From: Acutalibacteraceae bacterium
GTDB lineage: Bacteria; Bacillota; Clostridia; Oscillospirales; Acutalibacteraceae
NCBI GenBank assembly: GCA_045602685.1
Contig: JAZSCC010000106.1
Location: forward strand, 1-38,972
Length of the DNA: 38,972 bases
Direction: 5' to 3'
Shown here piece after piece: positions 1 to 21,023 of the stretch. How positions within the stretch are numbered: position 1 is the first letter of the stretch; every line of letters starts with the position of its first letter. Position numbers and translations under genes: made by a program. The notes under the pieces were generated by a model. The model saw only the letters and a list, made by a program, of their open reading frames with translations. It made no database searches and was not told the DNA's origin.

Positions 1-432
1 TATGCTATGGCGAATCCACTCATCAATGGCACCCTCGGTTGTATCACCGCCGCAAAGATGAAACACCGGCGTCCGTGTATTCCCTGCCGCTATTGCAATA
101 GCCAAGGTTTCATATCGGTCGCCGAGAAGCACGACTGCATCAAACTTTTCGTTCAAGAATAGTTCTGTAAATTTTTCCAAAGCGACAGCTTGATTTTTGG
201 AAATATCAGCTTCACTGTCAGAGGTCACGGGAATTACTATTTCAAAATCAATTCTGTTATTGTCTGAAATGATTTCCTGCTTTGTAAAACCGTATTGTTC
301 ACTCAGATGTGTTCCTGTGACAATAAGAGACACCTTAAAACTATTGTCTTCATATTTTCTGAGTTCGCGAATCAGTTGCGACAAAAGACCGTATTCGGCC
401 CTCGTTGCAGTTACGATTGCTACATTTTTCAT
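1..432 (-). CDS. neuC: UDP/GDP-N-acetylglucosamine 2-epimerase (hydrolysing), NeuC/LegG family. The 3' end is cut by the window edge.
   Basis: My minus-strand translation from the ATG at 432 reads MKNVAIVTATRAEYGLLSQLIRELRK...LLGDRYETLAIAIAAGNTRTPVFHLCGGDTTEGAIDEWIRHSI, a typical hydrolysing 2-epimerase N-terminus. The frame is open to position 1. The ATG overlaps the neuB stop codon (ATGA at 429-432). Confidence 0.85.
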   Translation of the reverse strand, partial: MKNVAIVTATRAEYGLLSQLIRELRKYEDNSFKVSLIVTGTHLSEQYGFTKQEIISDNNRIDFEIVIPVTSDSEADISKNQAVALEKFTELFLNEKFDAVVLLGDRYETLAIAIAAGNTRTPVFHLCGGDTTEGAIDEWIRHSI

Positions 433-2052: not shown

Positions 2053-2056
2053 CTTT

Positions 2057-4263: not shown

Positions 4264-4283
4264 GAATGTATCTTCTTTCTCAA

Positions 4284-6654: not shown

Positions 6655-6688
6655 ATTAACTTCCTCACACCTTTAAAACACAAAAGTA

Positions 6689-8128
6689 TTATCTTTCATT
6701 TAAAAGCTTTCGTATCTTTTTAAAATAAATCAAAAGCATAACAACTGTAAACACTGCCCCTGAGATTATAAGCTTAAGCCACCAATCAAGTGAAACTGTG
6801 TCTGCCAATTTCATAATAATAATTGCTATCGCAACAGGTATGACACTATTTGAGAGACATTTAAACAAACTGCACTTTGACAGCTTGGTCATTGACACTG
6901 CCAGCATAACTCCGTAAAGTGCATATGAAAGAGTTGTGCCATAGGCCACGTTTTCTATTTGCTCGCCGAAAATAACAACAAACCCTGCCGAAAACACTAC
7001 ATTAAAGACACATAAAATAACTGTATTTCTCAAAAGAAGAACGTTCTTCTTAATTATGGTAAACACATTGCCAAAAAGCATTGAAGAACTGTAAACGGCA
7101 ACACCCATAACAAGAATTTGTGCAGACTGTACGCCTTGTGAATACTGTGGCATTACCAACGATATAAACGGCGGAAGAATGTAGTACCCGCCGATACAGA
7201 CAATACTGGTTACAATACTTAAGGCAAAGGTGTAAACGTTAACCTTTTGTATCATACTTGAGGTGTCCTGTTGACTGCCGTACTGCTGTGCCATTTTAAC
7301 ATAAAACACCGAGGAAAAAGACTGAGGAATAAGCACAAGCGTGCTGAAACCTATGAGTGCAACACTGTATATTCCAAGCTCAGTATATGACATAAATCCG
7401 AGAATCACGAATTTATCAATAGACATCATCATTGTCCAGACAAGACTGTTTATTAAAAGCAAAATTCCGCTTTTAATTAAACTTGATATCTGTTTTGAAT
7501 CCCATACCGGTTTTACCGAGGAAAAATATTTAAAGTATGTAACAACACAGGCAATTAATGACACACCCACTGCAACAAGCAATCCGTAATAGCCAAGCTT
7601 TGGCACAATAAGTAATCCGCACACTGCAAGTGCCCCTGTTTTTACAGCAAGCGAAAGTGACGGGAATTTAAAATGTCCTTCCGATTTCAATGTGTTTTCC
7701 CAAAAGCTGCAAATAATTGTCAAAATGGCAAGAAATGCATTAACAACAAAACCGACATATAGCATGGTATTTATATGCCCTAATTGCCAAATTATTGTCA
7801 AAACCGCTGTCATAATCAATACAACGGCCATATAAATTACATACAGAAAAGTGAACACCGCACTTTTCATATGCGAGGCTTCATCCAACCTCTTTGCGCC
7901 CAAAAGTTGAGGATAATCACGGCTATATGCACTCAACACGCCGAGTTGAAGATAATTCATATACAAAAGCAGCATATTGGCAGTTGTATAAATACCGTAT
8001 TCGTACGGCGGAACATATCTTTTGGTTATGATATTATACACATAGGATATCATATGGCAAATTATCGAGGTTGCAGATATAATCAAATAACTTGATTTGC
8101 CGCTGTTTTTAAACAATTTTTTTAACAT
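6689..8128 (-). CDS. wzx: Wzx-type oligosaccharide flippase (MOP/polysaccharide biosynthesis protein family)
   Basis: 479 aa and highly hydrophobic, with about 12-14 predicted TM segments. Its position inside a glycan locus is typical for this family. Confidence 0.8.
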   Translation of the reverse strand: MLKKLFKNSGKSSYLIISATSIICHMISYVYNIITKRYVPPYEYGIYTTANMLLLYMNYLQLGVLSAYSRDYPQLLGAKRLDEASHMKSAVFTFLYVIYMAVVLIMTAVLTIIWQLGHINTMLYVGFVVNAFLAILTIICSFWENTLKSEGHFKFPSLSLAVKTGALAVCGLLIVPKLGYYGLLVAVGVSLIACVVTYFKYFSSVKPVWDSKQISSLIKSGILLLINSLVWTMMMSIDKFVILGFMSYTELGIYSVALIGFSTLVLIPQSFSSVFYVKMAQQYGSQQDTSSMIQKVNVYTFALSIVTSIVCIGGYYILPPFISLVMPQYSQGVQSAQILVMGVAVYSSSMLFGNVFTIIKKNVLLLRNTVILCVFNVVFSAGFVVIFGEQIENVAYGTTLSYALYGVMLAVSMTKLSKCSLFKCLSNSVIPVAIAIIIMKLADTVSLDWWLKLIISGAVFTVVMLLIYFKKIRKLLNER

Positions 8129-8131
8129 CGT

Positions 8132-9139
8132 TTAACGTTCTTTCTTTTTCAGCATTGCGGTAAGACTTGCACCGGAATCCATCCCGAGCACCTTTTTAAT
8201 GGTTTTTCCGAGTTTTCTTTTGAAACGTTCCTTAAAAGGATAAAGAGTGATTTTGCCGATTTTCTTTTCATAAACAGAATCAAGCTTTACTTCTTCGGGG
8301 TGCTTCAGCGGAAATGTCATCGGAACCGACGGCATACCGCAAAACCTCTTAGTCATTTCATTCTGGAGACTTGTTCCACCGTGCGTTGACAGCTCATCAG
8401 CGCCAATATTTGCAATTTGGTTATTGCAGGGCGATATACCGAACATTCCGTTAGAACGAACGGAATACTCCATTTGAAAATCCCAAGACGATTTATTGAT
8501 ATCGTTATCTACCAGATACTTGGTTTTTAAAATCGCATCCAACATTTGATTACGTAACGGAATATTTTTAAATTCACGGCAGTTATAAGTTTCCTTATAC
8601 CTGGCCATTTTTTTATCGTCATCTAAAGTTTTAAGTTCTGAATCATAGTGTTTTAAATATTTATCCGACCACGATGCCCAACCGCAAGGAAGCATATGTC
8701 TTGTAAACATATAGCTGTATTCAGAAGGATATTCGGCAAGATAGTTAGTACCGCAAATCCAGAGAATTCTGTCATCGGTTTTATATTTTTCCAAAAGTTC
8801 TTCGCAGAACGGGAAAAACGTAATTTCGGGCAGGTTATCGTCTTCAATAAAAATTGCTTTTTCTTCCTGTTCCAAAACCCATTTGGCACCTAAACCGATA
8901 TTTCTCAAAACACCGAGATTTTCATCGGAATAATGATGTATAAGCTCACAATCCCAGGTTATAAGCCTTTCTGCCTCCTTACGGCACTTGTCAGTCTCTG
9001 CTTTTTCCTGTTCATTCCTCGGCCCGTCGGCCAAAATGTACATTTTTTCGGGTTTGACCTCAGCAATTCGTCCTATAATGCGCTCAAGAGTATCGTATCT
9101 TTTGAAAACAAACAACACAACAGGTATTTTAAATCCCAT
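8132..9139 (-). CDS. GT-A fold glycosyltransferase (GNT-I/HlpA-like)
   Basis: The N-terminus IPVVLFVFKRYDTLERIIGRI...MYILADGPRN and the DxD-like motif IFIEDDNLPE fit a GT-A fold. I prefer the ATG at 9139 (MGFKIPVV), which has AAGGA 7 nt upstream, over the GTG at 9157. Confidence 0.7.
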   Translation of the reverse strand: MGFKIPVVLFVFKRYDTLERIIGRIAEVKPEKMYILADGPRNEQEKAETDKCRKEAERLITWDCELIHHYSDENLGVLRNIGLGAKWVLEQEEKAIFIEDDNLPEITFFPFCEELLEKYKTDDRILWICGTNYLAEYPSEYSYMFTRHMLPCGWASWSDKYLKHYDSELKTLDDDKKMARYKETYNCREFKNIPLRNQMLDAILKTKYLVDNDINKSSWDFQMEYSVRSNGMFGISPCNNQIANIGADELSTHGGTSLQNEMTKRFCGMPSVPMTFPLKHPEEVKLDSVYEKKIGKITLYPFKERFKRKLGKTIKKVLGMDSGASLTAMLKKKER

Positions 9140-9173
9140 TTTTATATCCTTTCTCACTTCCGATAAGTGCGAT

Positions 9174-10115
9174 TTATTTACGAATTAACCTTCTGTACAA
9201 ATTTCCGATAGGCTTTCTGAGAACTCCGTAGCAGTAGTATTTAAAAAGTCGGAATTTCAATTTGAAAGTTAACAGTTTTTTCTTTTTTATATATTTTTTC
9301 AGCGCTTTTCCCTCGGTATAGTGCTTTCGCTTATATGCAAAAATACATAATCCGATAGCAAACGGAGAAAGATTTTTACTATTTTGAATTTTATCTGTGT
9401 AATCCAAAATAAGTCTTTTTTCTTCATCAAATAACAAATCACTTCTTTTAACGGTGATTTGCGCGTTATGTACACGGCTTTTTGTCAGCGGCTTTGAAAT
9501 TACAAAAAAAGGATGATTGTTAATTGCTATCCGCATCCAATACTCACGGTCAAGCTGATGCTTATAATCAGTTATAAAAAAGCCTGTTTCATTCAAAACC
9601 TTTTTTGAAATAATCATTCCGCAACCGTTAAATGTCTTTTTATATAAGGTTTCTTCAAATGCTTGAGTCGGTGTTAATGCTCCAATTGTATGCTTGAACG
9701 GACTTTGGATTTCTTCTCCCTTAGCATTTACGAGCATTGTCTCACATACCATAATAACATTTTCACGTTCTTGGTCGGTAGAATAATTACCATTAAGAAG
9801 CGCAACCATTTTTTCGAGCTTTTCGGGCATATACAAATCATCATGAGAAAGCCAAGAAAACCATTCACCGGTCATAACCTCAATGCCATAGTTAAGTGCC
9901 GAAGCACAACCGCCGTTTTCTTTTTCAAAATACTTAATCTTATCACCATAGGAAAGTGCAACTTCACGGGTTTTTCCGTCATCTTTCGAGCCGTCATTCA
10001 CAACAATTATTTCTATATTTTTATAGGTTTGAGCCAATGCCGAATCTATCGCCTCTGCAAGATATTGAGAAGCATTATATGCCGGAATTACAATAGAAAT
10101 TAACGGATTATACAC
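9174..10115 (-). CDS. Family 2 glycosyltransferase
   Basis: ISIVIPAYNASQYLAEAIDSALAQTYKNIEIIVVNDGSKDD is a canonical GT2 N-terminus, and LSHDD is the DxD-type motif. The GTG start at 10115 has GAGGTGA upstream. Confidence 0.9.
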   Translation of the reverse strand: MYNPLISIVIPAYNASQYLAEAIDSALAQTYKNIEIIVVNDGSKDDGKTREVALSYGDKIKYFEKENGGCASALNYGIEVMTGEWFSWLSHDDLYMPEKLEKMVALLNGNYSTDQERENVIMVCETMLVNAKGEEIQSPFKHTIGALTPTQAFEETLYKKTFNGCGMIISKKVLNETGFFITDYKHQLDREYWMRIAINNHPFFVISKPLTKSRVHNAQITVKRSDLLFDEEKRLILDYTDKIQNSKNLSPFAIGLCIFAYKRKHYTEGKALKKYIKKKKLLTFKLKFRLFKYYCYGVLRKPIGNLYRRLIRK

Positions 10116-10134
10116 CCTTTATCACCTCTGAAAA

Positions 10135-11259
10135 TTAACCGATATTTAAAAACACTTCCGAAATACTCTTTTTAAAATTAGACACCTTGCAAGCGTCGGC
10201 AAATAATACTGCATTTTCAGATAACTTCTCTTTTTCTTTAACACAATATTCAATCTGAGTTGCCGCATCTTCAGGGTTATCAATTTCAAACAATTTACCG
10301 GCGTTGCTGGCTTCTACGAGTTCTTTTGCTCCGCCTATATCACAAGCTGCAACCGGAACACCCGCCGCAAAAGACTCAAGGCCTGCAAGAGACAACCCCT
10401 CGGTTGAAGGAATTATTAGCACGTCCATAACTTTAAGCAAATCGGGAATATCGTTTCTTCTTCCTAAAAACAATACATGTTCTGAAAGATTTTCTTTTTC
10501 AACCGTTTCTTTAAGTTCGTTTAAAAAGACTTCATCTCTGCACTCACCCATAAAAAGTGCAATGACATCCTGTCCTCTCTGCTTTAATGCTTTTACTGTT
10601 TGAATAACTATATCCTGTTTTTTGGGGCGCTGAATTAACGCAATATGCCCGACAACAATCCTTTTTTTCAAACAGTCACCGAATTCCTCGCGCACATTCT
10701 CGGCATTTCCGGAAGAATATTTTACAATGTCAACCGGATTATATATCACCTCAACCTTTTTGTGCGCTTCTTCATTTACTATCTGCCCACCTACGACGTT
10801 TGAAATCGCAATAATTTTCTTAACAGACTTCCATTTGGCACAAACATTTAACAGTTTTTTGGTGGCGCCGTCGAGAAAAATATGGTGCAGATGCCAGATA
10901 ACCTTTTTTCCTGTTAAAAATCCCACAGCCGCACTCCAAGGAAGTGCCGCAGGACCGGGGGCGTAAATTATTTCAGGCTTTTCCTTTATTACTACAAAAA
11001 ATCCCTTTACCACAGCCTTAAGTGAAAGCCACGCATAACGGAAAATTGCCGATTTGCCTTTTACACCTATCGGCATAGACTGGTCTCCGAGCAAGGTGTA
11101 CGTAATATTCCTTTTTTCAAGTTCCTCACTAAGAGCACCCTTAGTAGGTATAAGACAGTGAAAATCATAAGTATCTTTCAAAAGGTCAATTACCTGCAAT
11201 GTCATCTTCTGTCCGCCCGAAACAATACCGAGCGTTTCCCAGACAAGCATTTTTTTCAT
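10135..11259 (-). CDS. GT-B glycosyltransferase, GT4 (group 1) family
   Basis: The C-terminal motif LIIPSTEGLSLAGLESFAAGVPVAACDIGGAKELV is the GT4 E-x7-E region. The start is taken at MKKMLVW (ATG at 11259, AAGGGG 7 nt upstream). Confidence 0.88.
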   Translation of the reverse strand: MKKMLVWETLGIVSGGQKMTLQVIDLLKDTYDFHCLIPTKGALSEELEKRNITYTLLGDQSMPIGVKGKSAIFRYAWLSLKAVVKGFFVVIKEKPEIIYAPGPAALPWSAAVGFLTGKKVIWHLHHIFLDGATKKLLNVCAKWKSVKKIIAISNVVGGQIVNEEAHKKVEVIYNPVDIVKYSSGNAENVREEFGDCLKKRIVVGHIALIQRPKKQDIVIQTVKALKQRGQDVIALFMGECRDEVFLNELKETVEKENLSEHVLFLGRRNDIPDLLKVMDVLIIPSTEGLSLAGLESFAAGVPVAACDIGGAKELVEASNAGKLFEIDNPEDAATQIEYCVKEKEKLSENAVLFADACKVSNFKKSISEVFLNIG

Positions 11260-11263
11260 TGAA

Positions 11264-12700
11264 TTACCCCTTTGCATGTTCCAAAATCAAATCAAAAATT
11301 TCAGTCATTTCATATCTTCTCGGCTCAAGGGTTATATTATGACCGAAAAGTACCGCCGTTCTCCAACGGTGCCCGCCGGGAGACATTGTATACATAAGGC
11401 CGACGTTATTATCAATAAGTTTTTCGCCTAATTCCCACTCACCGCCATAGCGTTCATCCATTTGGAATATGATTTCGGGATATTTATCTAAAAACTCACC
11501 GTGATAAAAAGTATTGGTACGGACAATCCACTCAAAAAGCGGTTTGTCTTCACCTTCAATTTTAAACTGCCTGAGATATTCGATAATTTCATCAGCTTTT
11601 TTATCTTTATCCTCAACACTCTCGCTAAGACGTATTCCGCCATAACTGTAATTTTTCAAAGCAGATAAATCACTCAAAAAAGCTACTGTTTTATCCCAAT
11701 CGAAATCCGCACCCGAGGCAAACAAATTTTTCCAGACCGGAAATTTTCTTGCTATCTTCATTGCCCACTTTGGAATTCCCACCTTTTTAACAAAGGTAAC
11801 AGCAAAAGTCTTAATACGCTTTTTGAGGCTTTTTTTACTGCTTGAACTATTTGGCTTTTTAGGCGCTAAATATCCACCCCGTTTAAGCATTTCGTTGATT
11901 CTTGCAATATAAACCGGTCTTGCACCGTGACCGTGGTCACTCATAACAATAATTGGTGTTTTGGGATACATCTGCATAATTTCTCCGAGGCACTCATCCA
12001 TTTTGATATACATATCCCGAATAACATTTTCGTGCTCATTAATACCCGGATAGTTTGGATGATTGGTGTCACAGTGACGCCAAAAATCGTGTTGGATACC
12101 GTCGGTTGTTGAAAAATATGAAAACAGAACATCGGTGCTTTCATTTTCCAAGGCAAGCTTTGTAAGACGCCATTCCTCAGCCTGCTTTGAGAAAAACTCA
12201 TCACGAAGCTTGGGCAGAGCCGTCTCTGCAGTAAACTTACTTTCAGTACCGAGTATGTCACATCTCGGCCGATAAAGCTTTTCCTTTTCTTTTGGATAAA
12301 CAAACATTTTCCCGTCAATCGGGCGGGTTATCATAAGTCCGTTTATATCCCAGCCTTTTTTTATATTCATAGGCAAAAGAACCGTACAGGACAAGCCTGA
12401 TTCGTTAAGAATTTCCCAAAACGCCCTGCCGTAAAATACGGAATCATCAAAGGAAAACGGTTTATATGTATTGTTCTTGGCGCCGACATTAACGAAATTA
12501 ATAATGCCGTGCTGTGTAGGGTCAAGACCTGTATAGATAGTTGCCCAAGCGGGAGTAGTATCGGCCGGAAAAACCGAACGGAGTGTCGTATCGGGATTAC
12601 TTGACATCATCCTTGTTATGTTTGGAAGATACTCTTTATATCTTGCAATAACATCGGCATCCATGCCGTCTATACCGATTATAATAAGTTTTTTAATCAT
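11264..12700 (-). CDS. Alkaline-phosphatase superfamily enzyme, type I phosphodiesterase/nucleotide pyrophosphatase (NPP)-like, cytoplasmic
   Basis: 478 aa with no signal peptide. The metal-site Asp lies in IIIGIDGMDADV. The nucleophile-Thr region FPADTTPAWATIYTGLDPTQHG parallels the NPP motif (PT.TFPNH..IVTG..P..HG). The distal metal motif is VMSDHGHG. Confidence 0.75.
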   Translation of the reverse strand: MIKKLIIIGIDGMDADVIARYKEYLPNITRMMSSNPDTTLRSVFPADTTPAWATIYTGLDPTQHGIINFVNVGAKNNTYKPFSFDDSVFYGRAFWEILNESGLSCTVLLPMNIKKGWDINGLMITRPIDGKMFVYPKEKEKLYRPRCDILGTESKFTAETALPKLRDEFFSKQAEEWRLTKLALENESTDVLFSYFSTTDGIQHDFWRHCDTNHPNYPGINEHENVIRDMYIKMDECLGEIMQMYPKTPIIVMSDHGHGARPVYIARINEMLKRGGYLAPKKPNSSSSKKSLKKRIKTFAVTFVKKVGIPKWAMKIARKFPVWKNLFASGADFDWDKTVAFLSDLSALKNYSYGGIRLSESVEDKDKKADEIIEYLRQFKIEGEDKPLFEWIVRTNTFYHGEFLDKYPEIIFQMDERYGGEWELGEKLIDNNVGLMYTMSPGGHRWRTAVLFGHNITLEPRRYEMTEIFDLILEHAKG

Positions 12701-13397
12701 TTAAAATTTCCTTTTTATTCAGGTTGTCGTTAAGTACTGAATTAATAGCATCCATTACCTCTTTAAGCATTTTATCTTTATCCTGTGCGCCCGATATTGT
12801 CACCGTTGGGTACATTTTAGAAATGGTGTCATACAACGGCTCGCGAATTTCAAGGTAAAGAGGGTCGGGAATGTCATCCTTTCTTGAACAGCAAATCTCA
12901 ACCGGTGTTTTTATGTACACAATCAGGTCGGGCTTGGGTGCTTTCTTCCACTTTACGGAAATAGTTTGTTTCATATACTCCTCACCTAACCCTAAATTAG
13001 CGGCATAAGTAACGGCGTTATCGTATATATATCGGTCTACAAGCAAGGTTGTGCCAAAAAAATGCTTAAGTTTTACATACCAAAAAATCTGAAGTTTAAA
13101 TTCCAAAGTTGTAAAGAAAGAAAACAGCTTATATGTTGCACCTTGGTTGCCTGCCTGCTTTCTCATATTTTCGAGGTATGCTTTATAATCTCCGCCATAA
13201 GGATTGCTGTCCTTCTTCATAAGAAGCTTTTTCCCAAGCTTTATTGGCAGAGAAAGTATTTTTATAACATATGCCGCACGAACAATTTTTACCTTTATAC
13301 CCCGGCCTTTAAGTTGCTCATAAGCATAGTCAATGCTTGTGGATTTCCCCGAACCGTCAAGGCCCATAAAGCATATAATCGGTTTTTTCTTTTTCAT
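12693..13397 (-). CDS. P-loop kinase-like protein, thymidylate kinase (Tmk)-like fold with an insertion
   Basis: The P-loop ICFMGLDGSGKST matches the Tmk G-x-DG-x-GKST motif. A DRY-like motif occurs in LLVDRYIYDNAVTYAAN. About 60-80 aa of partly hydrophobic sequence is inserted between the two. Its stop overlaps the downstream start by 8 nt. Confidence 0.65.
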   Translation of the reverse strand: MKKKKPIICFMGLDGSGKSTSIDYAYEQLKGRGIKVKIVRAAYVIKILSLPIKLGKKLLMKKDSNPYGGDYKAYLENMRKQAGNQGATYKLFSFFTTLEFKLQIFWYVKLKHFFGTTLLVDRYIYDNAVTYAANLGLGEEYMKQTISVKWKKAPKPDLIVYIKTPVEICCSRKDDIPDPLYLEIREPLYDTISKMYPTVTISGAQDKDKMLKEVMDAINSVLNDNLNKKEILND

Positions 13398-13414
13398 ATT
13401 ATCAACCTTGCAAT

Positions 13415-14362
13415 TTATATTTTTGACAGCATATCAATTGCTGCCATATTCCAGGTTTTCGGATTTTTCAAGAAAGAGGCGTACTGTTTGCTTTTTGATG
13501 CTTCGAGCAAAACATCGCTTAAATCATTAATGCCATCAGCAAAAAAGACTCCGCCACTGACTGCAGGAATATTTTTGATTTTTTCGAAATCCTTATATGC
13601 AACAACCGGTGTGCCGCAAGAGAGCGCTTCCATTGCGGAAAGCGGAACGCTTATAACAAACTCTCCCGACTTTGTGGGGAACAGATACACATCCGCCATG
13701 CGATAATAGTCCTCAATATTTTCAACATAGCCGTTTATTTGTCTGACAGAGGCTTTGGTAAGCTCCTCTCGAACCGTTGTGTTCTCAAACATACCGCTTG
13801 TGACAATTATTCTTTCAAATTTATCTTTGTCTAATTTGCAAAAATCCTCAAGACCTCTGCCAACAGAACAGTGACCTACGTGAAGAACAACCTTTTTATC
13901 CTTTGGTACGTTATATTTTTCAAACAAGGCGTTACGCTCATCTTCAAAAACGGGTGAAAACTTTTCACTGTTTATTCCAACCTCAAGGTAGTGAAGCTTA
14001 CATTCCTTTGCCAGAACTATTTCTTCTGAGTCCTCTTTGCAAAGCGCAAAATAATCACACCTTAACGGATGCTTTTTAATTTTTGCTATAAAAGAAGCAT
14101 CCGGCTTCTGAACAGTGACAAGGCAGGTTTTACGGCTTAGCGCACTTATAAGACGAATAACGGGATAGGTTTTTTCGTTCAGTCTTACGAAAACAAACGT
14201 TGCATCGCACTTTAATGAATTACGAATAATAGAAAATGCGTTCTTAAGTCCCGAATAAAAAACTGTATTTTCTTTGGAAAATTCTTTCGCCATATGGGTT
14301 GCTATATTACGCATACCCTCATTTTGTTGACCGTTAACGGTACTTACTATATGTATCTTCAT
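13415..14362 (-). CDS. GT-B glycosyltransferase (GT4-like)
   Basis: The C-terminal region LFPTKSGEFVISVPLSAMEALSCGTPVVAY is typical of retaining GT-B enzymes. The ATG at 14362 shares one base with the radical SAM stop codon (TGATG). An alternative GTG start lies at 14365. Confidence 0.75.
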   Translation of the reverse strand: MKIHIVSTVNGQQNEGMRNIATHMAKEFSKENTVFYSGLKNAFSIIRNSLKCDATFVFVRLNEKTYPVIRLISALSRKTCLVTVQKPDASFIAKIKKHPLRCDYFALCKEDSEEIVLAKECKLHYLEVGINSEKFSPVFEDERNALFEKYNVPKDKKVVLHVGHCSVGRGLEDFCKLDKDKFERIIVTSGMFENTTVREELTKASVRQINGYVENIEDYYRMADVYLFPTKSGEFVISVPLSAMEALSCGTPVVAYKDFEKIKNIPAVSGGVFFADGINDLSDVLLEASKSKQYASFLKNPKTWNMAAIDMLSKI

Positions 14363-15819
14363 CACTTTTTAAACACCGATTTGCTCAAGCGTCCAAACGC
14401 TTTAAGCGAACGCTTTAAATCTTCAAAATCCGTAAGTCCCTTTTTAATACGATGCATAATATACCAAGGGCGAAGATAATATTTCTTTCTGGCCATAGCG
14501 CAGAAATCAACCAGCTCCTGAGGAGAAATCTCAGGCGTTTTTATAATGCAGTTGAGCGTGCCGTCCTCTTGGCAATACTCGTCATATTTGCCATTTATAT
14601 AGCCGTTCGAAAGCGCCCAATTATACGCCTCGGTTCCGGGATACGGAATAAGCGGGAAAAACTGTGCCGTATCTGTCTTAAAACGCAATGCGGCATTCAA
14701 AGTGTCCTGCATTGTCTGCTTGGTTTCTCCGCAGTTTCCAACCATATAGCACGCATGAACCATAAGCCCGGCCTTTTTTGCATTAGCCATATATTCTTCA
14801 ATCTGCTCAACCGTTGTTCCCTTTTTTATGTTATTGAGAATGGTTTGATTAAAGCTTTCTACCCCCGGAATAATGAGGTGGCATCCCGCTTTCTTCATAA
14901 GCTTCATTGTTTCAAGGTCCAGATTTACGCGGGCGTTGCAAAGCCATCTGATTTTTATTTTTTTATCAATCAGCATTTGACAAATTAAAATTGTTCTCTC
15001 TTTATTGACCGTGAAAGTATCGTCTTCAATGACGATTTCTTTGACAAAAGGCATATTTTTATAAACATATTCAAACTCTCCGACAACGTTTTCTACACTG
15101 CGGAGTCTGTATTTATGCCCATGCATTGTTTGCGGATAAACACAGAAATTACATCTTGCAGGACAACCGCGTCCTGTGAAAATCTGAACCGAAGGAAATG
15201 CCGCCGCTGCAAAGAAATAATCGTGAACATCCAAATTTTCGTTAATAAACTGTGTTGCATACGGAATAGAGTCAAGGTCTACTATGTAATCGGCATCGGG
15301 ATTATCGATAATGTTTCCTTTTTCATCACGGTAAGAAAGCCCTTTGACAGAGGATAAGTCTTGCCCATCACGAAGCGCAACTGCAAGGTCACGGACAATA
15401 TAATCGTACTCTTTTCTTGCCACACCGTCAATTTTATCACTTATATTAAGCGTTTCATTCACCGTAGCTGTAGGATGTGTTCCTACAAGAAGAACAAAAG
15501 CATCCTGATATTTTTCTTTGAGTTTTGCACCGAAAGCAACATCGCTATAGATAGAGGGAGTGCTGGTATCCAAAACAAAAAGCTTAGAATCAGATGCTTT
15601 TTCATCAATAATTTTCAAAGTTTCATCAACATTAGTTCTTTTAGCGCAAGCATCATAAAACTCAATATCTAATCCGCTTTCTCTTGTAACAAGAGCAGAA
15701 TAAATAAGCCAAAGAGGATAATAAAGAACACCGCTATGCCCTATAGACGGACTGCGGGACTCTCTTGAAAACTTACCGTATTCTGTTTTAAACGGCGGAT
15801 TAATAAACGTAACCTTCAT
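14362..15819 (-). CDS. B12-binding-domain radical SAM enzyme (class B)
   Basis: 485 aa. The N-terminal Rossmann-like domain (KLFVLDTSTPSIY...VLLVGTHPT) is typical of a cobalamin-binding domain. It is followed by the CxxxCxxC cluster motif in FTGRGCPARCNFCVYPQ and a TIM-barrel-type radical SAM core (IIPGVESFNQ). Confidence 0.85.
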   Translation of the reverse strand: MKVTFINPPFKTEYGKFSRESRSPSIGHSGVLYYPLWLIYSALVTRESGLDIEFYDACAKRTNVDETLKIIDEKASDSKLFVLDTSTPSIYSDVAFGAKLKEKYQDAFVLLVGTHPTATVNETLNISDKIDGVARKEYDYIVRDLAVALRDGQDLSSVKGLSYRDEKGNIIDNPDADYIVDLDSIPYATQFINENLDVHDYFFAAAAFPSVQIFTGRGCPARCNFCVYPQTMHGHKYRLRSVENVVGEFEYVYKNMPFVKEIVIEDDTFTVNKERTILICQMLIDKKIKIRWLCNARVNLDLETMKLMKKAGCHLIIPGVESFNQTILNNIKKGTTVEQIEEYMANAKKAGLMVHACYMVGNCGETKQTMQDTLNAALRFKTDTAQFFPLIPYPGTEAYNWALSNGYINGKYDEYCQEDGTLNCIIKTPEISPQELVDFCAMARKKYYLRPWYIMHRIKKGLTDFEDLKRSLKAFGRLSKSVFKK

Positions 15820-15846
15820 TTTGTTACTTTTCCTCTCTTTTCCCTT

Positions 15847-16614
15847 TTAGATTTTACTTTTACTTATTCTCTTTCTTTTGGTAATACTGTGTATGGAATA
15901 TCTCAGCATCAACATTAATGCACTTAATTTACAGTAACCGTATGCATGATATGTATTGAACGTCATTTTAGCAGACTTCAGCCGTCCGCTTGATTTTGAA
16001 TTTGACGACAACCGATATATAAGCATAGGCTCATTCAGCCCATATGCATATTTATGCTCCTTCAGCACCTTTAACCAAATATAATAATCCTCGTGCATTT
16101 GGTCACCCGGCATTTTAAGAGCCTTCATAACATCCGCTTTTATCATAACCGACGAGCATGACAAAAGATTACGCTTTAAAAGAGTAGAAAAATCGGTTTT
16201 TTCCTCGGCCTCCATTACATACCCGAAAGAGTTCCCGTTTTCATCAATAAAGGCAGATGCCGTATAGCTTATGACCGCACCTTCAATCTTTTCCAATAAT
16301 GCAAGCTGTTTCTCAAGCTTATCCTCACGCCACATATCATCACTGTCAAGAAATGCTATCCACTTACCAGCTGCACGGCTAATGCCGTAATTACGAGTTG
16401 CCGAGACACCTGAATTCTTCTCGTTTTGCAGTAAAACTATTCTGTCATCACTTTCGGCATATGACTTTATAAGCTCCTGTGTATTGTCATTAGAGCAATC
16501 GTCTATAACTATCAGTTCAAAATCCTTATAGGTCTGTTTTAACACTGAACCTATTGCGCTATCTATTGTTTTTGCCGCATTATATGCAGGCATTATTACA
16601 CTTATTTGAGGCAT
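15847..16614 (-). CDS. Family 2 glycosyltransferase
   Basis: ISVIMPAYNAAKTIDSAIGSVLKQTYKDFELIVIDDCSND and FLDSDD (DxD) are canonical GT2 motifs. Confidence 0.9.
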   Translation of the reverse strand: MPQISVIMPAYNAAKTIDSAIGSVLKQTYKDFELIVIDDCSNDNTQELIKSYAESDDRIVLLQNEKNSGVSATRNYGISRAAGKWIAFLDSDDMWREDKLEKQLALLEKIEGAVISYTASAFIDENGNSFGYVMEAEEKTDFSTLLKRNLLSCSSVMIKADVMKALKMPGDQMHEDYYIWLKVLKEHKYAYGLNEPMLIYRLSSNSKSSGRLKSAKMTFNTYHAYGYCKLSALMLMLRYSIHSITKRKRISKSKI

Positions 16615-16625
16615 ATTGTCCTCCT

Positions 16626-17468
16626 TTATACGCTTTTTAATATGCTTTCCTTGGTTTTAGCAACACAATATTCAAAACCAAAATCCTCGGTATCGGAATA
16701 AACAAGTGTCCCAAATGCTTTACGGAAAATACCGGCAAAGGGTGAGCACAATTTAACTAAAAATCCGAGAAACGAGCTTATATAAAGCTTTTTTCCCATT
16801 TTTTCTGCAACGGTTTTTGCCATTTCACTTGTGTTTATATACTCTTTATTTTGAGGAAAATATAAACCGCTTAAATTTCTGTCAATACACATTTTTACAA
16901 AAGAAATAAGATTATCAATATAAATCATACTTCGTTTATTATTTACCTTTGGAAAAACGGGAGACTTTTTTACAATTTTTAAAATGCTGACAAAATTCCC
17001 TTTACAGTCTTTTCCGTATACCATCGGAGGCCTTACCGTAACAACCGAAAAACTTTCATCGGCAAGTGCGGCAATTTTTGTTTCGGCTTCAAATTTGGAT
17101 TTTCCGTAATTACTTGTGGGCTTAGGAAGGGTGTCCTTGGTTATAACACCGGTAACCATTCCGTAAACACTCATAGAACTTAGAAAAATAAACTGACGGA
17201 CTCCCTCTTTTTTTGCTTTTTCGGCAGTTTCTATTGCCATATCACGGTTGATTTTATAATAAAGCTCACTGTTTACCTCTTTTTCCTTTTTGTGAGCAAT
17301 CCCGGCAACGTGAAAAACGACATCATACTGCGAAAAATCCTTTTCACGCCATGTGCCGTCAATCATATCCACCGTATCTACTAAATATAGGTCATCACGA
17401 CTTTTTAAAAATTTTTCAAACGAAACGCCTATATAGCTGTTTGCACCCGTGACCAATATTTTTTTCAT
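16626..17468 (-). CDS. NAD-dependent epimerase/dehydratase-family SDR (nucleotide-sugar epimerase or reductase)
   Basis: Glycine-rich motif ILVTGANSYIG and YxxxK in SNYGKSKFEAE. 280 aa. It is coupled to the upstream phosphoglycosyl transferase by an ATGA overlap at 17465-17468. Confidence 0.8.
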   Translation of the reverse strand: MKKILVTGANSYIGVSFEKFLKSRDDLYLVDTVDMIDGTWREKDFSQYDVVFHVAGIAHKKEKEVNSELYYKINRDMAIETAEKAKKEGVRQFIFLSSMSVYGMVTGVITKDTLPKPTSNYGKSKFEAETKIAALADESFSVVTVRPPMVYGKDCKGNFVSILKIVKKSPVFPKVNNKRSMIYIDNLISFVKMCIDRNLSGLYFPQNKEYINTSEMAKTVAEKMGKKLYISSFLGFLVKLCSPFAGIFRKAFGTLVYSDTEDFGFEYCVAKTKESILKSV

Positions 17469-18088
17469 TTATTTATTGTCTCTTTCTCTCTTTTCTTTAT
17501 CTCACCGGTTCCTCCCTCGACAACACCGTCTCTACCCAAAACCGATTTTATAGTGCCAAAGAAACACCTACAGTCAAAGCCAAAACCCATTCTTTCAACA
17601 TAAACACCGTCCAGCTTGGCTTTTTCCGAAATTTCAACCTCGTCCCGTCCGTTTATCTGTGCCCATCCCGTAAGGCCGGGCTTTATATCGTTTGCACCGT
17701 ATCTGTCACGCTCTTCAATGAGGTCATCCTGATTCCAAAGTGCCGGACGCGGACCGATAATTGACATTTTTCCAAACAAAATATCGTAAATCTGAGGCAG
17801 TTCATCAAGACTTGTTTTCCGTAAAAAATTTCCCACACGGGTTATGTACTGCTCCGGATTTTCGAGCAGATGTGTCGGTATGTCGGGAGTTTTAAGCTTC
17901 ATACTCCTGAATTTATGTAACCAAAACAGCTTTTTATTTTTGCCCACCCGTTTTTGCTTGAAAATTACCGGACCCGGGTCATCAATAAAAATAACCAAAG
18001 AAATTACGATAAACAACGGCAAAAGTACTATAGCGCCGATGAATGATAATGTAATATCTAAAAACCTTTTCAAAAAATTCTTATACAT
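17465..18088 (-). CDS. Small monotopic phosphoglycosyl transferase (PglC/WbaP C-terminal-domain 'bacterial sugar transferase' family); initiating enzyme
   Basis: An N-terminal re-entrant helix (LDITLSFIGAIVLLPLFIVISLVIFI) precedes DDPGPVIFKQKRVGKNKKLFWLHKFRSM, DELPQ and IIGPRP, all family signatures. The start is taken at MYKNFLK (ATG at 18088, GAGG upstream). Confidence 0.92.
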   Translation of the reverse strand: MYKNFLKRFLDITLSFIGAIVLLPLFIVISLVIFIDDPGPVIFKQKRVGKNKKLFWLHKFRSMKLKTPDIPTHLLENPEQYITRVGNFLRKTSLDELPQIYDILFGKMSIIGPRPALWNQDDLIEERDRYGANDIKPGLTGWAQINGRDEVEISEKAKLDGVYVERMGFGFDCRCFFGTIKSVLGRDGVVEGGTGEIKKREKETINK

Positions 18089-18128
18089 AATGCGCCTCAC
18101 ACATTTTTATACAACACCTGATACATCC

Positions 18129-18650
18129 TCAGCCGTTAAAAACCTTTCCGCTTTCAACCTTAACCTTTGCCGGCACGTTTGAACAGCTGGCAACCGTAGC
18201 ATTACAGTCAATATGTACACAGTCCCCGCATACGCTCGAATGGTTAATCACCGCACCCGCTGAAACTATACAGCCGACACCCAAACGGCACAACGGATTT
18301 ACAACAGCCATAGGCTCTATAATGCAACCCGGCATAACCTTTGCCGATGATGAGACGTGCGCTTTAGGTGATATCAAGGACACAATATTCAGGTCTGTTT
18401 CCAACTTTATCTTTTCAAGAATAGCCAATCTGACTTTACCGTCTCCTATCGCAACAGCTACGTTGCGGTATTCTTTGGATAATTCTTTTAAATCCTCAGA
18501 AGTGCCGATCACATGCGAGCCATCAGGCGTCACATTGCAACGGTCATCAACAAATATTATTTTTGAAAAGCAAGCCATATCTTCAGCGGTTTCTTTCGCC
18601 ACCGTAGAATACACTCCGGCACCTATAATAATTAAGCCGTTATTTGCCAT
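18129..18650 (-). CDS. Hexapeptide-repeat acetyltransferase, PglD/NeuD-like; first gene of the operon
   Basis: 173 aa. The N-terminal LIIIGAGVYS Rossmann-like segment is followed by a beta-helix (VMPGCIIEPMAVVN...VGCIVSAGAVINH...GDCVHIDCNATV). A strong AAGGAG RBS lies upstream of the ATG at 18650. Confidence 0.8.
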   Translation of the reverse strand: MANNGLIIIGAGVYSTVAKETAEDMACFSKIIFVDDRCNVTPDGSHVIGTSEDLKELSKEYRNVAVAIGDGKVRLAILEKIKLETDLNIVSLISPKAHVSSSAKVMPGCIIEPMAVVNPLCRLGVGCIVSAGAVINHSSVCGDCVHIDCNATVASCSNVPAKVKVESGKVFNG

Positions 18651-18755
18651 TAAATCAGCTCTCCTTACCGGAACGTTGTCACGTTACTCGTAAACTTTAC
18701 CATAAAAAACTTCATTGTTCATAGCATATGTATACAAAACACCTAATTATAATTT

Positions 18756-18784
18756 ATCATACCATAAATTTATAGTTTTGACAA
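18756..18784 (-). promoter_or_regulatory. Putative sigma-A promoter of the glycan operon
   Basis: The minus strand reads TTGTCA (18784-18779), a 17-nt spacer, then TATGAT (18761-18756) preceded by TGG. This would give a 5' UTR of about 100 nt before the first gene. Confidence 0.5.
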
Positions 18785-18922
18785 CAAAAAATTGTTGTTT
18801 TATAACTATTTTAATAATACAAAATAAATTAAAACACGACAAAATTAAGATATGACAAAAAACGACACTTCAAACAACTGTTTCAAAACCCTGTTTTTTT
18901 GCAAAACAATTTTAATAACAGC

Positions 18923-18960
18923 AAACCCTCGGTCAAGGTTAATTCTTGCCCGAGGGTTTT
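18923..18960 (-). terminator. Rho-independent terminator after thrS
   Basis: A 10-bp inverted repeat, AAACCCTCGG (18923-18932) and CCGAGGGTTT (18950-18959), is followed on the minus strand by the T-rich tail TTTGCTGTTATT. It is also T-flanked on the plus strand. Confidence 0.7.
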
Positions 18961-18968
18961 TAAACATT

Positions 18969-20771
18969 TTATTTGTAAATCTTTTTAGTGTCAATTTCTT
19001 CCTTAATCTGTGCTATGAAATCTGACAACGACACGGAACCTAAATCCCCGCGATTACGCGAGCGAACCGATACGGTATTTTCTTCAACTTCCTTGTCGCC
19101 GATAATGAGCATATATGGAATTTTTTCCAACTGTGCTTCGCGGATACGGTAGCCCATTTTCTCACCGCGGTCATCACAGGTAACCTTAATTCCTGCCTTT
19201 TTAAGTTCTTCGGTAACAGCCAAAGCCTCATCACGAAGTCTTTCCGACAACGGCAATACTCTGACCTGCTCGGGAGCCATCCATGTCGGCAATGCACCGG
19301 CGAACTTCTCCAAAAGCAAGGCAAGTGTTCTTTCGTAACAACCCAAAGAAGTACGATGGATGATATACGGCGTTTTCTTTTCACCGTCAACATCAACATA
19401 TTCCATACCGAATTTTTTAGCAAGTAACATATCAATCTGAATGGTAATGAGGGTATCCTCTTTGCCATGAACGTTCTTTATCTGAATATCCAGTTTAGGT
19501 CCGTAAAAGGCTGCCTCATCAATACCAACTGAATACTTTAATCCCAGATTATCAAGAATCTTGCCCATAAGACTTTGAGCCTCGTCCCACTGCTTTGGAG
19601 TACCCTCGTACTTGTCGGTGCGATTGGGGTCCCACTGCGAGAAACGGTAGGAAACATCCTCGTCAAGACCAACCGACTTGAGCATATAGTTGGCTAGCTC
19701 TAAGCAACCCTTGAACTCCTCCTCTAACTGTTCGGGACGAAGTACCAAGTGACCTTCAGAAATAGTGAACTGACGTACACGTATAAGTCCGTGCATTTCA
19801 CCCGAATCTTCATTTCTGAAAAGGGTTGAGGTTTCACCCAAACGCATAGGCAAATCACGGTATGAACGCATTTTGTTCAAGAAAACCTGATACTGAAACG
19901 GACAGGTCATAGGGCGCAACGCAAAGCATTCTTTTTCTTCGTCATTGGGGTCTCCCATAACAAACATACCGTCTAAATAATGGTCCCAATGACCTGAAAT
20001 TTTATAAAGTTCACGCTTTGCCATTAGCGGAGTTTTGGTGAGTAAATAGCCACGTCTTTGCTCCTCATCCTCAACAAAACGCTGCAACAGCTGAATTGTT
20101 CTTGCGCCTTTAGGCAACATAATGGGAAGTCCCTGACCGATAGAGTCAACGGTAGTAAAATACTCTAGTTCACGGCCGATTTTGTTGTGGTCACGATTTT
20201 TAGCCTCTTCAACTGCCTTTAAGTATTCATCCAACTCGGGTTGGGTGGCAAATGCAGTGCCGTAAACACGGGTAAGCATTTTATTTTTACTGTCATTTTT
20301 CCAATATGCACCCGAAATTGAGGTCAGTTTAAACGCCTTGAGCGCCTTTGTATAGGTAATGTGCGGTCCACGGCACATATCGGTATAATCACCCTGACGG
20401 TAAAAGCTGATTTCGGCATCCTCGGGCAAATCTGCAATGTGCTCGACCTTGTAAACCTCGCCTGCTTCTTCCATCTGACGAATTGCTTCTGCTCTGGGCA
20501 AAATTTCAGGTTTAATGGGTAAATTTTCCTTAACGATTTTCTTCATTTCGGCCTCGATAGCCGGCAAATCGTCATCGGTCAACTTAACCTCTCCCAAGTC
20601 AACATCATAATAAAATCCTTTTTCGGTTGCGGGACCGTAAGCAAACTTTGCCTCAGGGTAAAGCCTTTTAATTGCCTGTGCCATAATGTGTGCGGCAGAA
20701 TGACGGATAACCTCTAACTCCTCGGCTTCGGGGCACTGGTCAACAACGCCGTTTTGATAAATAACCTTCAT
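18969..20771 (-). CDS. thrS: Threonine--tRNA ligase
   Basis: Editing-domain motif RHSAAHIMAQAIK. The class II core includes RPMTCPFQ, FRNEDSGEMHGLIRVRQF and GPKLDIQ, followed by a C-terminal anticodon-binding domain. The start is taken at MKVIYQNG (ATG at 20771, AAGGAG upstream). The 16 extra codons of the tracked ORF overlap the T-box terminator. Confidence 0.95.
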   Translation of the reverse strand: MKVIYQNGVVDQCPEAEELEVIRHSAAHIMAQAIKRLYPEAKFAYGPATEKGFYYDVDLGEVKLTDDDLPAIEAEMKKIVKENLPIKPEILPRAEAIRQMEEAGEVYKVEHIADLPEDAEISFYRQGDYTDMCRGPHITYTKALKAFKLTSISGAYWKNDSKNKMLTRVYGTAFATQPELDEYLKAVEEAKNRDHNKIGRELEYFTTVDSIGQGLPIMLPKGARTIQLLQRFVEDEEQRRGYLLTKTPLMAKRELYKISGHWDHYLDGMFVMGDPNDEEKECFALRPMTCPFQYQVFLNKMRSYRDLPMRLGETSTLFRNEDSGEMHGLIRVRQFTISEGHLVLRPEQLEEEFKGCLELANYMLKSVGLDEDVSYRFSQWDPNRTDKYEGTPKQWDEAQSLMGKILDNLGLKYSVGIDEAAFYGPKLDIQIKNVHGKEDTLITIQIDMLLAKKFGMEYVDVDGEKKTPYIIHRTSLGCYERTLALLLEKFAGALPTWMAPEQVRVLPLSERLRDEALAVTEELKKAGIKVTCDDRGEKMGYRIREAQLEKIPYMLIIGDKEVEENTVSVRSRNRGDLGSVSLSDFIAQIKEEIDTKKIYK

Positions 20772-20799
20772 ATTTTTACTCTCCTTAACGGGTAATTTT

Positions 20800-20839
20800 A
20801 AAAAATAAAAGCCCTTCAAGTGCTTAACACTTAAAGGGC
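20800..20839 (-). terminator. T-box attenuator terminator
   Basis: The RNA forms GCCCUUUAAGUG-UUAAG-CACUUGAAGGGC, a 12-bp stem with one G-U pair, followed by UUUUAUUUUUU. It sits immediately upstream of the thrS RBS. Confidence 0.85.
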
Positions 20840-21023
20840 GTAAATACGCGGTTCCACCTTTAAAAACTCATCTTACCTTTAACGCAGGCGAGACGTCAGC
20901 CTTGTTACCGGACTGCACTCAGGGGTGGTTTTCATGACCGCAAACTTTTGCAAGGCTTTCAGCCTTTGACCTTGCTCTCTTTAACCGTTTTATCGGCACT
21001 ACTGTCCCCATCAACGCTTTATT
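20800..21023 (-). promoter_or_regulatory. T-box riboswitch leader, threonine-specific (specifier ACC)
   Basis: The minus-strand RNA contains the conserved T-box sequence AAAGGUGGAACCGCG (20861-20847). It also has Stem I elements (GAUGGGGACAGUAG, AGAGAG). The specifier-loop context is GAAAACCA, with ACC at 20929-20927 followed by a purine. A competing terminator lies at 20800-20839. Confidence 0.85.

Follow-up and report, generated by a model that had tools for sequence, protein, structure and literature searches.

A conserved six-gene module of Clostridia proposed to build and tailor a segment of a surface polysaccharide

What does a polysaccharide operon do with a radical S-adenosylmethionine (SAM) enzyme, a kinase of the thymidylate kinase (Tmk) fold and a cytoplasmic enzyme of the alkaline phosphatase (AlkP) superfamily? 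The question was raised by a contig of Acutalibacteraceae bacterium (GCA_045602685.1, contig JAZSCC010000106.1), of which a stretch of 38,972 nucleotides (nt) was analysed (the window; all positions are given as forward strand). An earlier note on this DNA, made from the letters alone, had described four linked minus-strand genes for a class B radical SAM enzyme (rSAM), a GT-B glycosyltransferase (GT), a Tmk-like protein and a protein resembling nucleotide pyrophosphatases/phosphodiesterases (NPP). The four open reading frames (ORFs), their coordinates and their junctions were read in the same way here, and the domain assignments agreed with Pfam matches to Radical_SAM, Glycos_transf_1, Thymidylate_kin and Phosphodiest. 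The boundary around four genes was drawn too narrowly, in that a family-2 GT gene ahead of them (GT2a) and a GT4 gene behind them (Table 1) were part of the conserved unit. We propose, at a probability of about 40%, that the six genes of this module assemble and tailor a conserved stretch of oligosaccharide in a Wzx/Wzy-type polysaccharide, most likely on the undecaprenyl-diphosphate carrier, and that a phosphoryl cycle would be part of the process.

Gene neighbourhoods were gathered by three look-ups, by a species-level scan that took a single genome of each species (42 loci) and by a metagenome scan (80 loci, many of them from human gut), and their genes were mapped with tblastn, blastp and family hidden Markov models (HMMs), the HMM score thresholds being our own choice. 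The metagenome contigs were partly redundant, and the species-level set was the more independent sample. We found that one order recurred in about 120 loci, namely GT2a, rSAM, the GT-B enzyme (here GT316), the Tmk-like protein, the NPP-like protein and GT4, with an extra GT1 gene ahead of GT316 or an O-acyltransferase gene ahead of GT4 at some of them. Where enough flank was available, the Tmk-like and NPP-like genes were neighbours in 108 of 112 loci, GT316 and the Tmk-like gene occurred together in 95 of 98, and rSAM, GT316 and the Tmk-like gene in 60 of 64. The six genes were complete in 48 of 56 such loci, and five of the eight exceptions failed the GT2 threshold only. Most loci belonged to Oscillospiraceae or Ruminococcus, many on human-gut contigs, and the further hosts were Acutalibacteraceae, Lachnospiraceae, Peptococcaceae, Desulfosporosinus sp. 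OT and unclassified Clostridia, with rumen Clostridia also represented. A group at about 40% identity, including a Phycisphaerales metagenome-assembled genome (MAG), had the order GT316, Tmk-like, NPP-like, GT4, rSAM, GT2. At about 30% identity, a group including Armatimonadetes kept the GT316-like, Tmk-like and NPP-like genes, and the rSAM gene nearby was of the SPASM and not of the B12 type; these SPASM rSAM genes were 24-35% identical among themselves.

The six families were also inherited together, as their distance matrices correlated with r = 0.86-0.95 over 27 species-level loci. This bears on the suggestion that the genes are a chance juxtaposition, or unrelated genes in decay. A locus of Ruminococcaceae UBA1438 (L039, 9196-13653) could be cited for it: beside a phosphoglycosyl transferase (PGT) gene and a GT4 gene split into two ORFs, it keeps the NPP-like gene only, without rSAM, GT316 and the Tmk-like gene, and is apparently a decayed version of the cassette. 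Synteny over about 120 loci in two gene orders, invariant catalytic residues, overlapping or coupled junctions and the correlated distance matrices make this explanation hardly credible.

The surroundings of the module varied. The initiating enzyme was a PglC-type PGT with a short-chain dehydrogenase/reductase (SDR) in a subset of loci, a large WbaP-type PGT in others, or absent within 10 kb, and the genes downstream of GT4 (Wzy, flippase, further GTs) differed between loci. Because both the initiating enzyme and the genes behind GT4 vary, the module is regarded as a conserved block in otherwise variable Wzx/Wzy-type loci. Related loci carry Wzy_C, Polysacc_synt and Wzz; the window carries a PGT gene and a Polysacc_synt_3 flippase gene, and no Wzy was identified inside it. 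An inserted gene between the NPP-like gene and GT4 was inspected in four loci (L016, L017, L019 and L040) and inferred from a spacing of about 1 kb in four more (L014, L020, L022 and L044). L017, L019 and L040 have at this place a multi-pass membrane protein that reads as O-acyltransferase-like from its sequence and not from a Pfam match, and L016 has a hexapeptide-repeat acetyltransferase. Since O-acyltransferase genes are inserted in the module at some loci, its product would be a decorated glycan. The extra GT1 of the Ruminococcus loci, of 355 amino acids (aa), lies between rSAM and GT316. Two metagenome loci (L128 and L129) showed a GT-B/Tmk-like/NPP-like trio of about 32% identity with a polysaccharide deacetylase gene between GT and kinase, lying near a frameshifted SPASM rSAM gene and an exosortase (EpsH/DUF3485) gene.

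The window's operon also contains a nonulosonic acid (legionaminic/pseudaminic-type) gene set, and the earlier note had connected the two. It had suggested a nucleotide swap in which the NPP-like protein cleaves a nucleotide sugar such as UDP-GlcNAc and the Tmk-like protein re-phosphorylates the nucleoside monophosphate (NMP), feeding the CBS-nucleotidyltransferase at 2057-3097. The two sets are co-located in this one window only. Among 129 related loci, LegI and LegH were found in none, PtmE-like and LegC genes in one each and LegB in two, with the cassette conserved throughout, and the Tmk-like protein does not have the nucleotide-recognition residues of Tmk. Because the legionaminic acid genes are absent from related loci that conserve the cassette, the nucleotide swap was removed as a highly improbable explanation, and the nonulosonic acid set is considered a strain-specific addition. 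Co-occurrence beyond this genome, which the earlier note had proposed to look for, was thus found without the legionaminic acid set.

The rSAM protein matched Radical_SAM at 2.9e-22 and has the cluster motif C219-x3-C223-x2-C226. These cysteines and a long N-terminal motif were kept in at least 95% of 37 sequences, and identity between loci was 67-81%. For B12-binding, the protein of the window gave only a weak match of 18.6 bits, where the cut-off is 32.1, and the L045 homologue a clear one of 51 bits; PF02310 was given for the sister-clade proteins described below. The nearest NCBIfam family was HpnJ (TIGR03471, 393.8 bits over a full-length alignment), followed by BchE (165 bits) and PhpK (138 bits), and the closest solved structure by sequence was AprD4 (1e-23). 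Among 1.8 billion cluster representatives, 4,699 relatives were found at E < 1e-30, the nearest being 40-46% identical. Because all twelve relatives that were scored are HpnJ-like yet below the cut-off of that family, the enzyme was assigned to a sister group of HpnJ that is very large and uncharacterised.

Four members of this sister clade were seen beside a GT2 gene in polysaccharide loci. The order was GT1, rSAM and a TuaG-like GT2 in Sporomusaceae, and rSAM, GT2 and PGT in Desulfobacterales. A Brocadiia MAG (L133) had Wzy, GT4, rSAM and GT2, and Patescibacteria (L131) a PpgS-like GT2, DUF2304 and rSAM, then heptose-type genes and four further B12-rSAM genes. In about 30 species-level loci of the cassette, GT2a (43-69% identical) was the gene immediately ahead of rSAM. 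The earlier note had supposed that the rSAM enzyme modifies a sugar which the downstream GT then installs; the modification stayed plausible, but the GT that travels with rSAM across phyla is the GT2 and not the downstream GT-B. Two distant NPP-like paralogues (181 bits with the cassette HMM) and an amine-oxidase-like gene were seen in the Brocadiia MAG (1-4929 and 6655-11529), just upstream of its Wzy, GT4, HpnJ-like rSAM and GT2 genes and without a Tmk-like gene. The Patescibacteria cluster (7999-19372) holds five B12-domain rSAM genes and one further rSAM gene, among which lie genes for SIS, GHMP-kinase, NTP_transferase/HAD and methyltransferase proteins. It adjoins the genes of DUF2304 and of the PpgS-like polyprenyl-phosphate GT2, and has the look of a heptose-type pathway with much radical tailoring.

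Other roles for the rSAM enzyme were considered and rejected. A phosphonate pathway, to which similarities to PhpK, Fom3 and PhnA might point, was discarded on finding no gene resembling phosphoenolpyruvate mutase in any locus, and the PhnA match was the generic N-terminal AlkP motif. Maturation of the AlkP-like protein, after the model of the anaerobic sulfatase-maturating enzyme (anSME), did not fit either: the nucleophile is a Thr in DTTPAW and not C/S-x-P-x-R, and the cassette rSAM is, by its sequence, of the B12 type. The SPASM rSAM beside a distant homologue in L049 fitted PTO1314/NirJ-like models and not the anSME model.

The Tmk-like protein matched Thymidylate_kin at 1.5e-7 and dNK (deoxynucleoside kinase) at 5e-4. 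Its score was above the cut-off in Pfam (PF02223, 31.7 bits against 27) and below it in NCBIfam (TIGR00041, 32.2 bits against 83.25). An AlphaFold2 (AF2) model from a 17-sequence alignment had a predicted local distance difference test score (pLDDT) of 81, and Foldseek matched it to thymidylate kinases with TM-scores of 0.6-0.74 at 17-23% identity. The invariant residues were GLDGSGKST, R40, D121-R122-Y123 and R172-K173. An insertion between the P-loop and the DRY motif had been noted before as large; it is present, but at 27 residues more than in Aquifex Tmk it is of moderate size, and a relaxed Pfam scan of the insert found no secondary domain. Where Aquifex Tmk has REP, the cassette protein has RAA, and the family consensus is TYAANLG at the place of AYQG. 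The R-E-P and A-Y-Q-G motifs serve dTMP recognition in Tmk, and the Tmk arginines that match R40 and R122 bind the acceptor phosphate. The cassette protein keeps both arginines and has no dNK-type Glu base. We therefore read it as a kinase of the Tmk fold that would act on another acceptor. In sum of likeness, it shares fold, P-loop, DRY and LID arginine with thymidylate and deoxynucleoside kinases, and is unlike them in its low identity, its extra residues, the replaced REP and YQ and its place in a glycan operon. Homologues were numerous (61-85% identical).

The NPP-like protein matched Phosphodiest (PF01663) over residues 5-276 at 2.6e-34 (119.8 bits against a cut-off of 23). D11, T48, D200, H204, D255, H256, H258 and H444, which include the six metal ligands and the Thr nucleophile, were invariant in 12 homologues, so that the intact nucleophile and metal motifs reported in the earlier note were borne out; in a single distant homologue, Ser takes the place of T48. 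The protein had likewise been called signal-less, and neither a signal peptide nor a transmembrane segment was predicted in it. The nucleophile motif is DTTPAW, against T-F-P-N-H in NPP, with Ala51 invariant at the position of the NPP Asn. In NPP diesterases such as Xac NPP, the Asn of T-x-P-N-H contacts a phosphoryl oxygen. An Asp before the nucleophile and Ala in place of Asn presumably make the cassette protein more like monoesterases and mutases than diesterases. Against Protein Data Bank chains only the first 65-105 residues or so aligned, and no close solved structure was found. Foldseek matches to PhnA and NPPs had TM-scores below 0.4, which is superfamily level only, and were excluded from inference. 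A relaxed Pfam scan of the C-terminal 200 residues gave no secondary domain. The protein thus resembles the NPP/PhnA/PafA branch in its Phosphodiest match, Thr nucleophile and full set of two-metal-site ligands, and differs in being cytoplasmic, in about 200 extra residues including a basic insert, and in having DTTPAW and not TFPNH. Its homologues were numerous (59-81% identical). The databases name the NPP-like and Tmk-like homologues only 'alkaline phosphatase family protein', 'AlkP superfamily phosphohydrolase/phosphomutase', 'thymidylate kinase' or 'hypothetical'; the Joint Genome Institute (JGI) name for the NPP-like protein is 'predicted AlkP superfamily phosphohydrolase/phosphomutase'.

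The earlier note had also thought of a phosphate-containing decoration. In this reading the kinase and NPP-like pair would leave a stable one, the kinase turning a phosphomonoester into a diphosphate or phosphorylating the glycan and the NPP-like protein, as a phosphotransferase with a covalent Thr-phosphoryl intermediate, leaving a phosphate or phosphodiester on the completed polysaccharide. Transferases with a Thr nucleophile are known in the AlkP superfamily (EptA/MCR-1 and LtaS), R40 and R122 of the kinase, kept without a dNK-type Glu base, are compatible with a phosphate acceptor, and the two genes are adjacent and often overlap. However, the known transferases are membrane-bound members of the sulfatase family and not PF01663 proteins, the Asp and Ala at the nucleophile presumably point to a monoesterase or mutase, and no donor-synthesis gene (a cytidylyltransferase of the LicC/TagD type) is conserved with the cassette. 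We regard this explanation as unlikely.

GT2a matched Glycos_transf_2 at 4.8e-39 and the TuaG model with 223 bits, without reaching its cut-off of 400. GT316 had its Glycos_transf_1 C-domain above the gathering score (36-41 bits) and no Pfam match in the N-domain; the C-domain motifs HVGH.S.GR.LE, FPT and PLS..EAL were kept. Its acidic pair is E235 (D or E in 93%) and E246 (100%), with the spacing E-x10-E against E-x7-E in retaining GT4 enzymes. The GT316 gene always adjoined the Tmk-like gene, even in loci only about 30% identical. GT4 matched Glycos_transf_1 (5e-23) and Glyco_transf_4, and came after the NPP-like gene in the majority of loci (38-60% identical), at times with an O-acyltransferase gene inserted ahead of it; this position was unchanged in the group at about 40% identity.

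The module is composite. Sub-module A, GT2 with the HpnJ-like rSAM, is a pair found in many phyla without the kinase and AlkP-like pair. Sub-module B consists of GT316, the Tmk-like and the NPP-like proteins (with GT4), and almost always has an rSAM gene nearby. That A occurs without B, and B rarely without rSAM, suggests that sub-module B acts on, or depends on, the product of sub-module A.

On this basis the following route is proposed, of which we infer the substrates, the order of the steps and the transience of the phosphate. After initiation by a PGT, GT2 would add a hexose or hexosamine. The rSAM enzyme would then rewrite the carbon skeleton of this lipid-linked sugar, either by ring contraction to an ether-linked cyclopentitol or by C-methylation. 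The kinase would phosphorylate the remodelled intermediate with ATP, GT316 would glycosylate the phosphorylated intermediate, and the AlkP-superfamily enzyme would remove or relocate the phosphate through a phospho-Thr48 intermediate. GT4 would extend the chain, and variable, strain-specific enzymes would complete the repeat unit.

Precedents exist for the parts of this route. HpnI/HpnK/HpnJ, the glycosyltransferase of glycerol dialkyl glycerol tetraethers (GDGT) with Cds, and PtmJ/PtmC are attach-then-contract proposals with genetic evidence only (PMC13459092, PMC9092360). For Cds, the calditol synthase of Sulfolobus, and PtmC of pactamycin, contraction of a hexose to a cyclopentitol has been proposed to follow attachment by a GT to a lipid or aglycone (PMC13459092, PMC9092360). 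The pairing of GT and rSAM in the cassette mirrors these cases. The likeness to the first system is that HpnJ is the closest named family of the rSAM enzyme, that a GT2 gene adjoins the rSAM gene, and that the proposed substrate of HpnJ is a lipid-linked hexosamine; unlike that system, the cassette scores below the HpnJ cut-off, has no hopanoid genes and a TuaG-/EpsD-like GT2 instead of HpnI, and lies in a Wzx/Wzy locus of Clostridia. Cds and PtmC have no kinase or AlkP partner and make no polysaccharide, and are likened by proposed chemistry and not by sequence. A published sequence-similarity network groups Fom3, MoeK5 and HpnJ (PMC9204698). It is through this network, and not by direct comparison, that the cassette enzyme resembles the B12-rSAM C-methyltransferases MoeK5, GenK and Fom3. 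The sugars that MoeK5 and GenK C-methylate belong to glycolipid or pseudo-oligosaccharide intermediates, and MoeK5 and Fom3 are C-methylases. Rearrangement and methylation cannot be told apart from the sequence.

For the phosphoryl cycle, phosphorylated-acceptor GTs paired with phosphatases are known in MshA/MshA2, SPS/SPP, OtsA/OtsB and GpgS/GpgP, and the linker of glycosaminoglycans carries a transient xylose-2-phosphate (FAM20B/PXYLP1). The cassette likewise joins a GT-B of the GT4 type, without exception, to a kinase and an enzyme of phosphatase type, and by analogy it may make a linker-like segment. The cassette differs from these pairs in that its kinase and phosphatase belong to other families (Tmk fold, PF01663), and in that most precedents have small soluble acceptors.

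Several observations weigh against a lipid-linked route with a phosphoryl cycle. One is the pattern of conservation. Mean pairwise identity over the 27 species-level loci was 74% for rSAM, 69% for the Tmk-like and 68.5% for the NPP-like protein, compared to 52% for GT2a, 50% for GT316 and 48.5% for GT4, so that conservation is much higher in the three non-GT enzymes (about 69-74%) than in the GTs (48-52%). Such a contrast is usual for enzymes whose substrates are small soluble precursors, and not for those that work on a growing glycan. To our knowledge, nucleosides or nucleotides are the substrates of every Tmk/dNK-fold kinase characterised so far. The substrates of all six proteins are putative. 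The rSAM enzyme is not HpnJ proper: its 393.8 bits fall below the curated cut-off of 577.6 for the equivalog TIGR03471, the genomic context is also wrong, and 12 of 12 sister-clade proteins scored below the same cut-off (291-459 bits). Accordingly, no Pfam families of hopanoid genes (shc, hpnH, hpnI, hpnK) were found among the called genes of the window, L001-L007 and L130-L133. No PGT was found within 10 kb of some Ruminococcus loci, and the AF2 model of the NPP-like protein was poor (pLDDT 62). The chemistry of HpnJ itself is known from a knockout only, as genetic support, and ring contraction has not been shown in vitro (PMC13459092, PMC9204698). None of the four core proteins (rSAM, GT316, kinase, NPP-like) had a predicted transmembrane helix. 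In favour of the route, candidate cationic amphipathic segments at 467-484 of rSAM, 44-61 of the kinase and 308-325 of the AlkP-like protein would be compatible with action of these three enzymes at the membrane interface, the evidence for the segments being weak.

The conservation pattern is what would be expected if the kinase and the AlkP-like enzyme, possibly with rSAM, made an unusual activated sugar as a soluble donor for GT316. Two routes may be envisaged. In a Leloir-like one, the kinase makes a sugar-1-phosphate and the NPP-like enzyme swaps onto it the NMP of a common nucleotide sugar through a Thr-NMP intermediate; in the other, kinase and phosphomutase deliver a sugar-1-phosphate to a housekeeping nucleotidyltransferase or straight to the GT-B. 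Consistent with a soluble donor, the donor-binding C-domain of GT316 is conserved and the acceptor-side N-domain variable, the kinase fold family acts on soluble nucleotides, the JGI label of the AlkP-like protein includes phosphomutase, and the HpnJ-like rSAM genes of L045 and L131 lie beside NTP_transferase and GHMP-kinase genes. On the other hand, the cassette has no conserved nucleotidyltransferase, kinases for the anomeric position of sugars normally have the GHMP or ASKHA and not the Tmk fold, the conserved partner of the rSAM family is a GT2 and not a precursor enzyme, and HpnJ, its closest named relative, would act on a lipid-attached sugar. Soluble-donor synthesis is the strongest rival, and a serious though less probable one. 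A bolder reading, which we consider a long shot, is that rSAM makes an ether-linked cyclopentitol, a carbocyclic mimic of ribose, from a hexose of the lipid-linked glycan, and that the kinase and the NPP-like enzyme, as enzymes of nucleotide type, were recruited for the likeness of this residue to a ribofuranoside; they would first phosphorylate its 5'-like hydroxymethyl group and then process it. If this were true, abundant gut and rumen Clostridia would bear a glycosidase- and acid-resistant carbasugar on their surface, made by a route without precedent in glycan biosynthesis.

The genes of the module are closely joined (Table 1). The rSAM stop (TGA, 14364-14362) and the GT316 start (ATG, 14362-14360) have one base in common (TGATG), and GTG at 14365 is a second possible start of GT316. 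The GT316 stop (TAA, 13417-13415) is followed by a 17-nt spacer and the Tmk-like ATG at 13397, and the Tmk-like stop (TAA, 12695-12693) overlaps the NPP-like gene, with its ATG at 12700, by 8 nt. GT4 may start at 11277, overlapping the NPP-like gene, or more likely at the ATG at 11259, 4 nt past the NPP-like stop. GT2a ends 27 nt upstream of the rSAM gene. The minus strand carries every gene from 18650 down to 429. The strongest minus-strand promoter-like sites were at 18994-18756, upstream of 18650, and no convincing terminator was seen inside the block, both scans being near the expectation from shuffled sequence and therefore weak. An Rfam scan ahead of the operon found no riboswitch.

Table 1. 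Positions of the module genes and of other features in the window
Feature	Position	Strand	Basis or remark
GT2a, TuaG-like family-2 glycosyltransferase, 255 aa	15847-16614	-	Glycos_transf_2; first gene of six-gene set
HpnJ-like radical SAM enzyme (rSAM), probably class B, 485 aa	14362-15819	-	Radical_SAM, CxxxCxxC
GT316, GT4-like GT-B with short divergent N-terminal domain, 316 aa	13415-14365	-	Glycos_transf_1, Glyco_trans_1_4
Tmk/dNK-fold P-loop kinase-like protein, 234 aa	12693-13397	-	Thymidylate_kin, dNK
Cytoplasmic NPP/AlkP-superfamily enzyme (COG3379-type 'phosphohydrolase/phosphomutase'), 478 aa	11264-12700	-	Phosphodiest
GT4 glycosyltransferase, 380 aa as ORF	10135-11277	-	Glycos_transf_1, Glyco_transf_4; last gene of set
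PglD/NeuD-like acetyltransferase	18129-18650	-	Pfam/NCBIfam; operon head (context)
Small PglC-type PGT (Bac_transf)	17465-18100	-	Pfam/NCBIfam; operon head (context)
SDR epimerase/reductase, 280 aa	16626-17468	-	Pfam/NCBIfam; operon head (context)
Flippase	6689-8128	-	Polysacc_synt_3
Nonulosonic acid (legionaminic/pseudaminic-type) set: NeuB synthase, PglD-like acetyltransferase, CBS + NTP_transferase, DegT aminotransferase, 4,6-dehydratase	429-5285	-	Same operon
341-aa protein	8132-9157	-	No Pfam or NCBIfam match
465-aa protein	5257-6654	-	Only weak Capsule_synth match (1e-7)
thrS	18969-20819		
T-box leader upstream of thrS	20831-21023	-	77 bits, E = 2.5e-16, below Rfam gathering score 93
Sizeable ORF outside glycan operon	21149-21922	+	No Pfam match
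Sizeable ORF outside glycan operon	26123-27415	+	No Pfam match
Sizeable ORF outside glycan operon	32070-32744	+	No Pfam match

Elsewhere in the operon, the 341-aa or the 465-aa protein could be an uncharacterised transferase, for example for nonulosonic acid. The T-box leader, which escapes a default Rfam scan because of its score, is ordinary biology. The three Pfam-less ORFs on the plus strand lie among genes of housekeeping type (Pth, Mfd, M16 peptidases, Lgt, FolD, SpoIIE, a cation-efflux protein and Ddl).

No published description of this gene combination was found in the literature searched, in agreement with the earlier note, which knew of no characterised pathway that combines these enzymes, and the database names are generic. 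Polysaccharide loci with tailoring enzymes are familiar as a setting; this set of enzymes is not. Since the module is widespread, with dozens of species carrying it, is strongly conserved and includes three enzyme types that do not belong to the glycan toolkit known so far, an unusual residue is very probably its product, which could be C-branched, carbocyclic and/or phosphorylated. In gut commensals, immune recognition, susceptibility to phages and colonisation are shaped by the surface polysaccharides, and those of the dominant Clostridia are almost uncharacterised. The module offers a genetic handle on the large uncharacterised branch of HpnJ-like B12 rSAM enzymes (about 4,700 representative clusters at E < 1e-30), and a first biological context for the COG3379-type cytoplasmic AlkP-family proteins and for a divergent Tmk-fold kinase.

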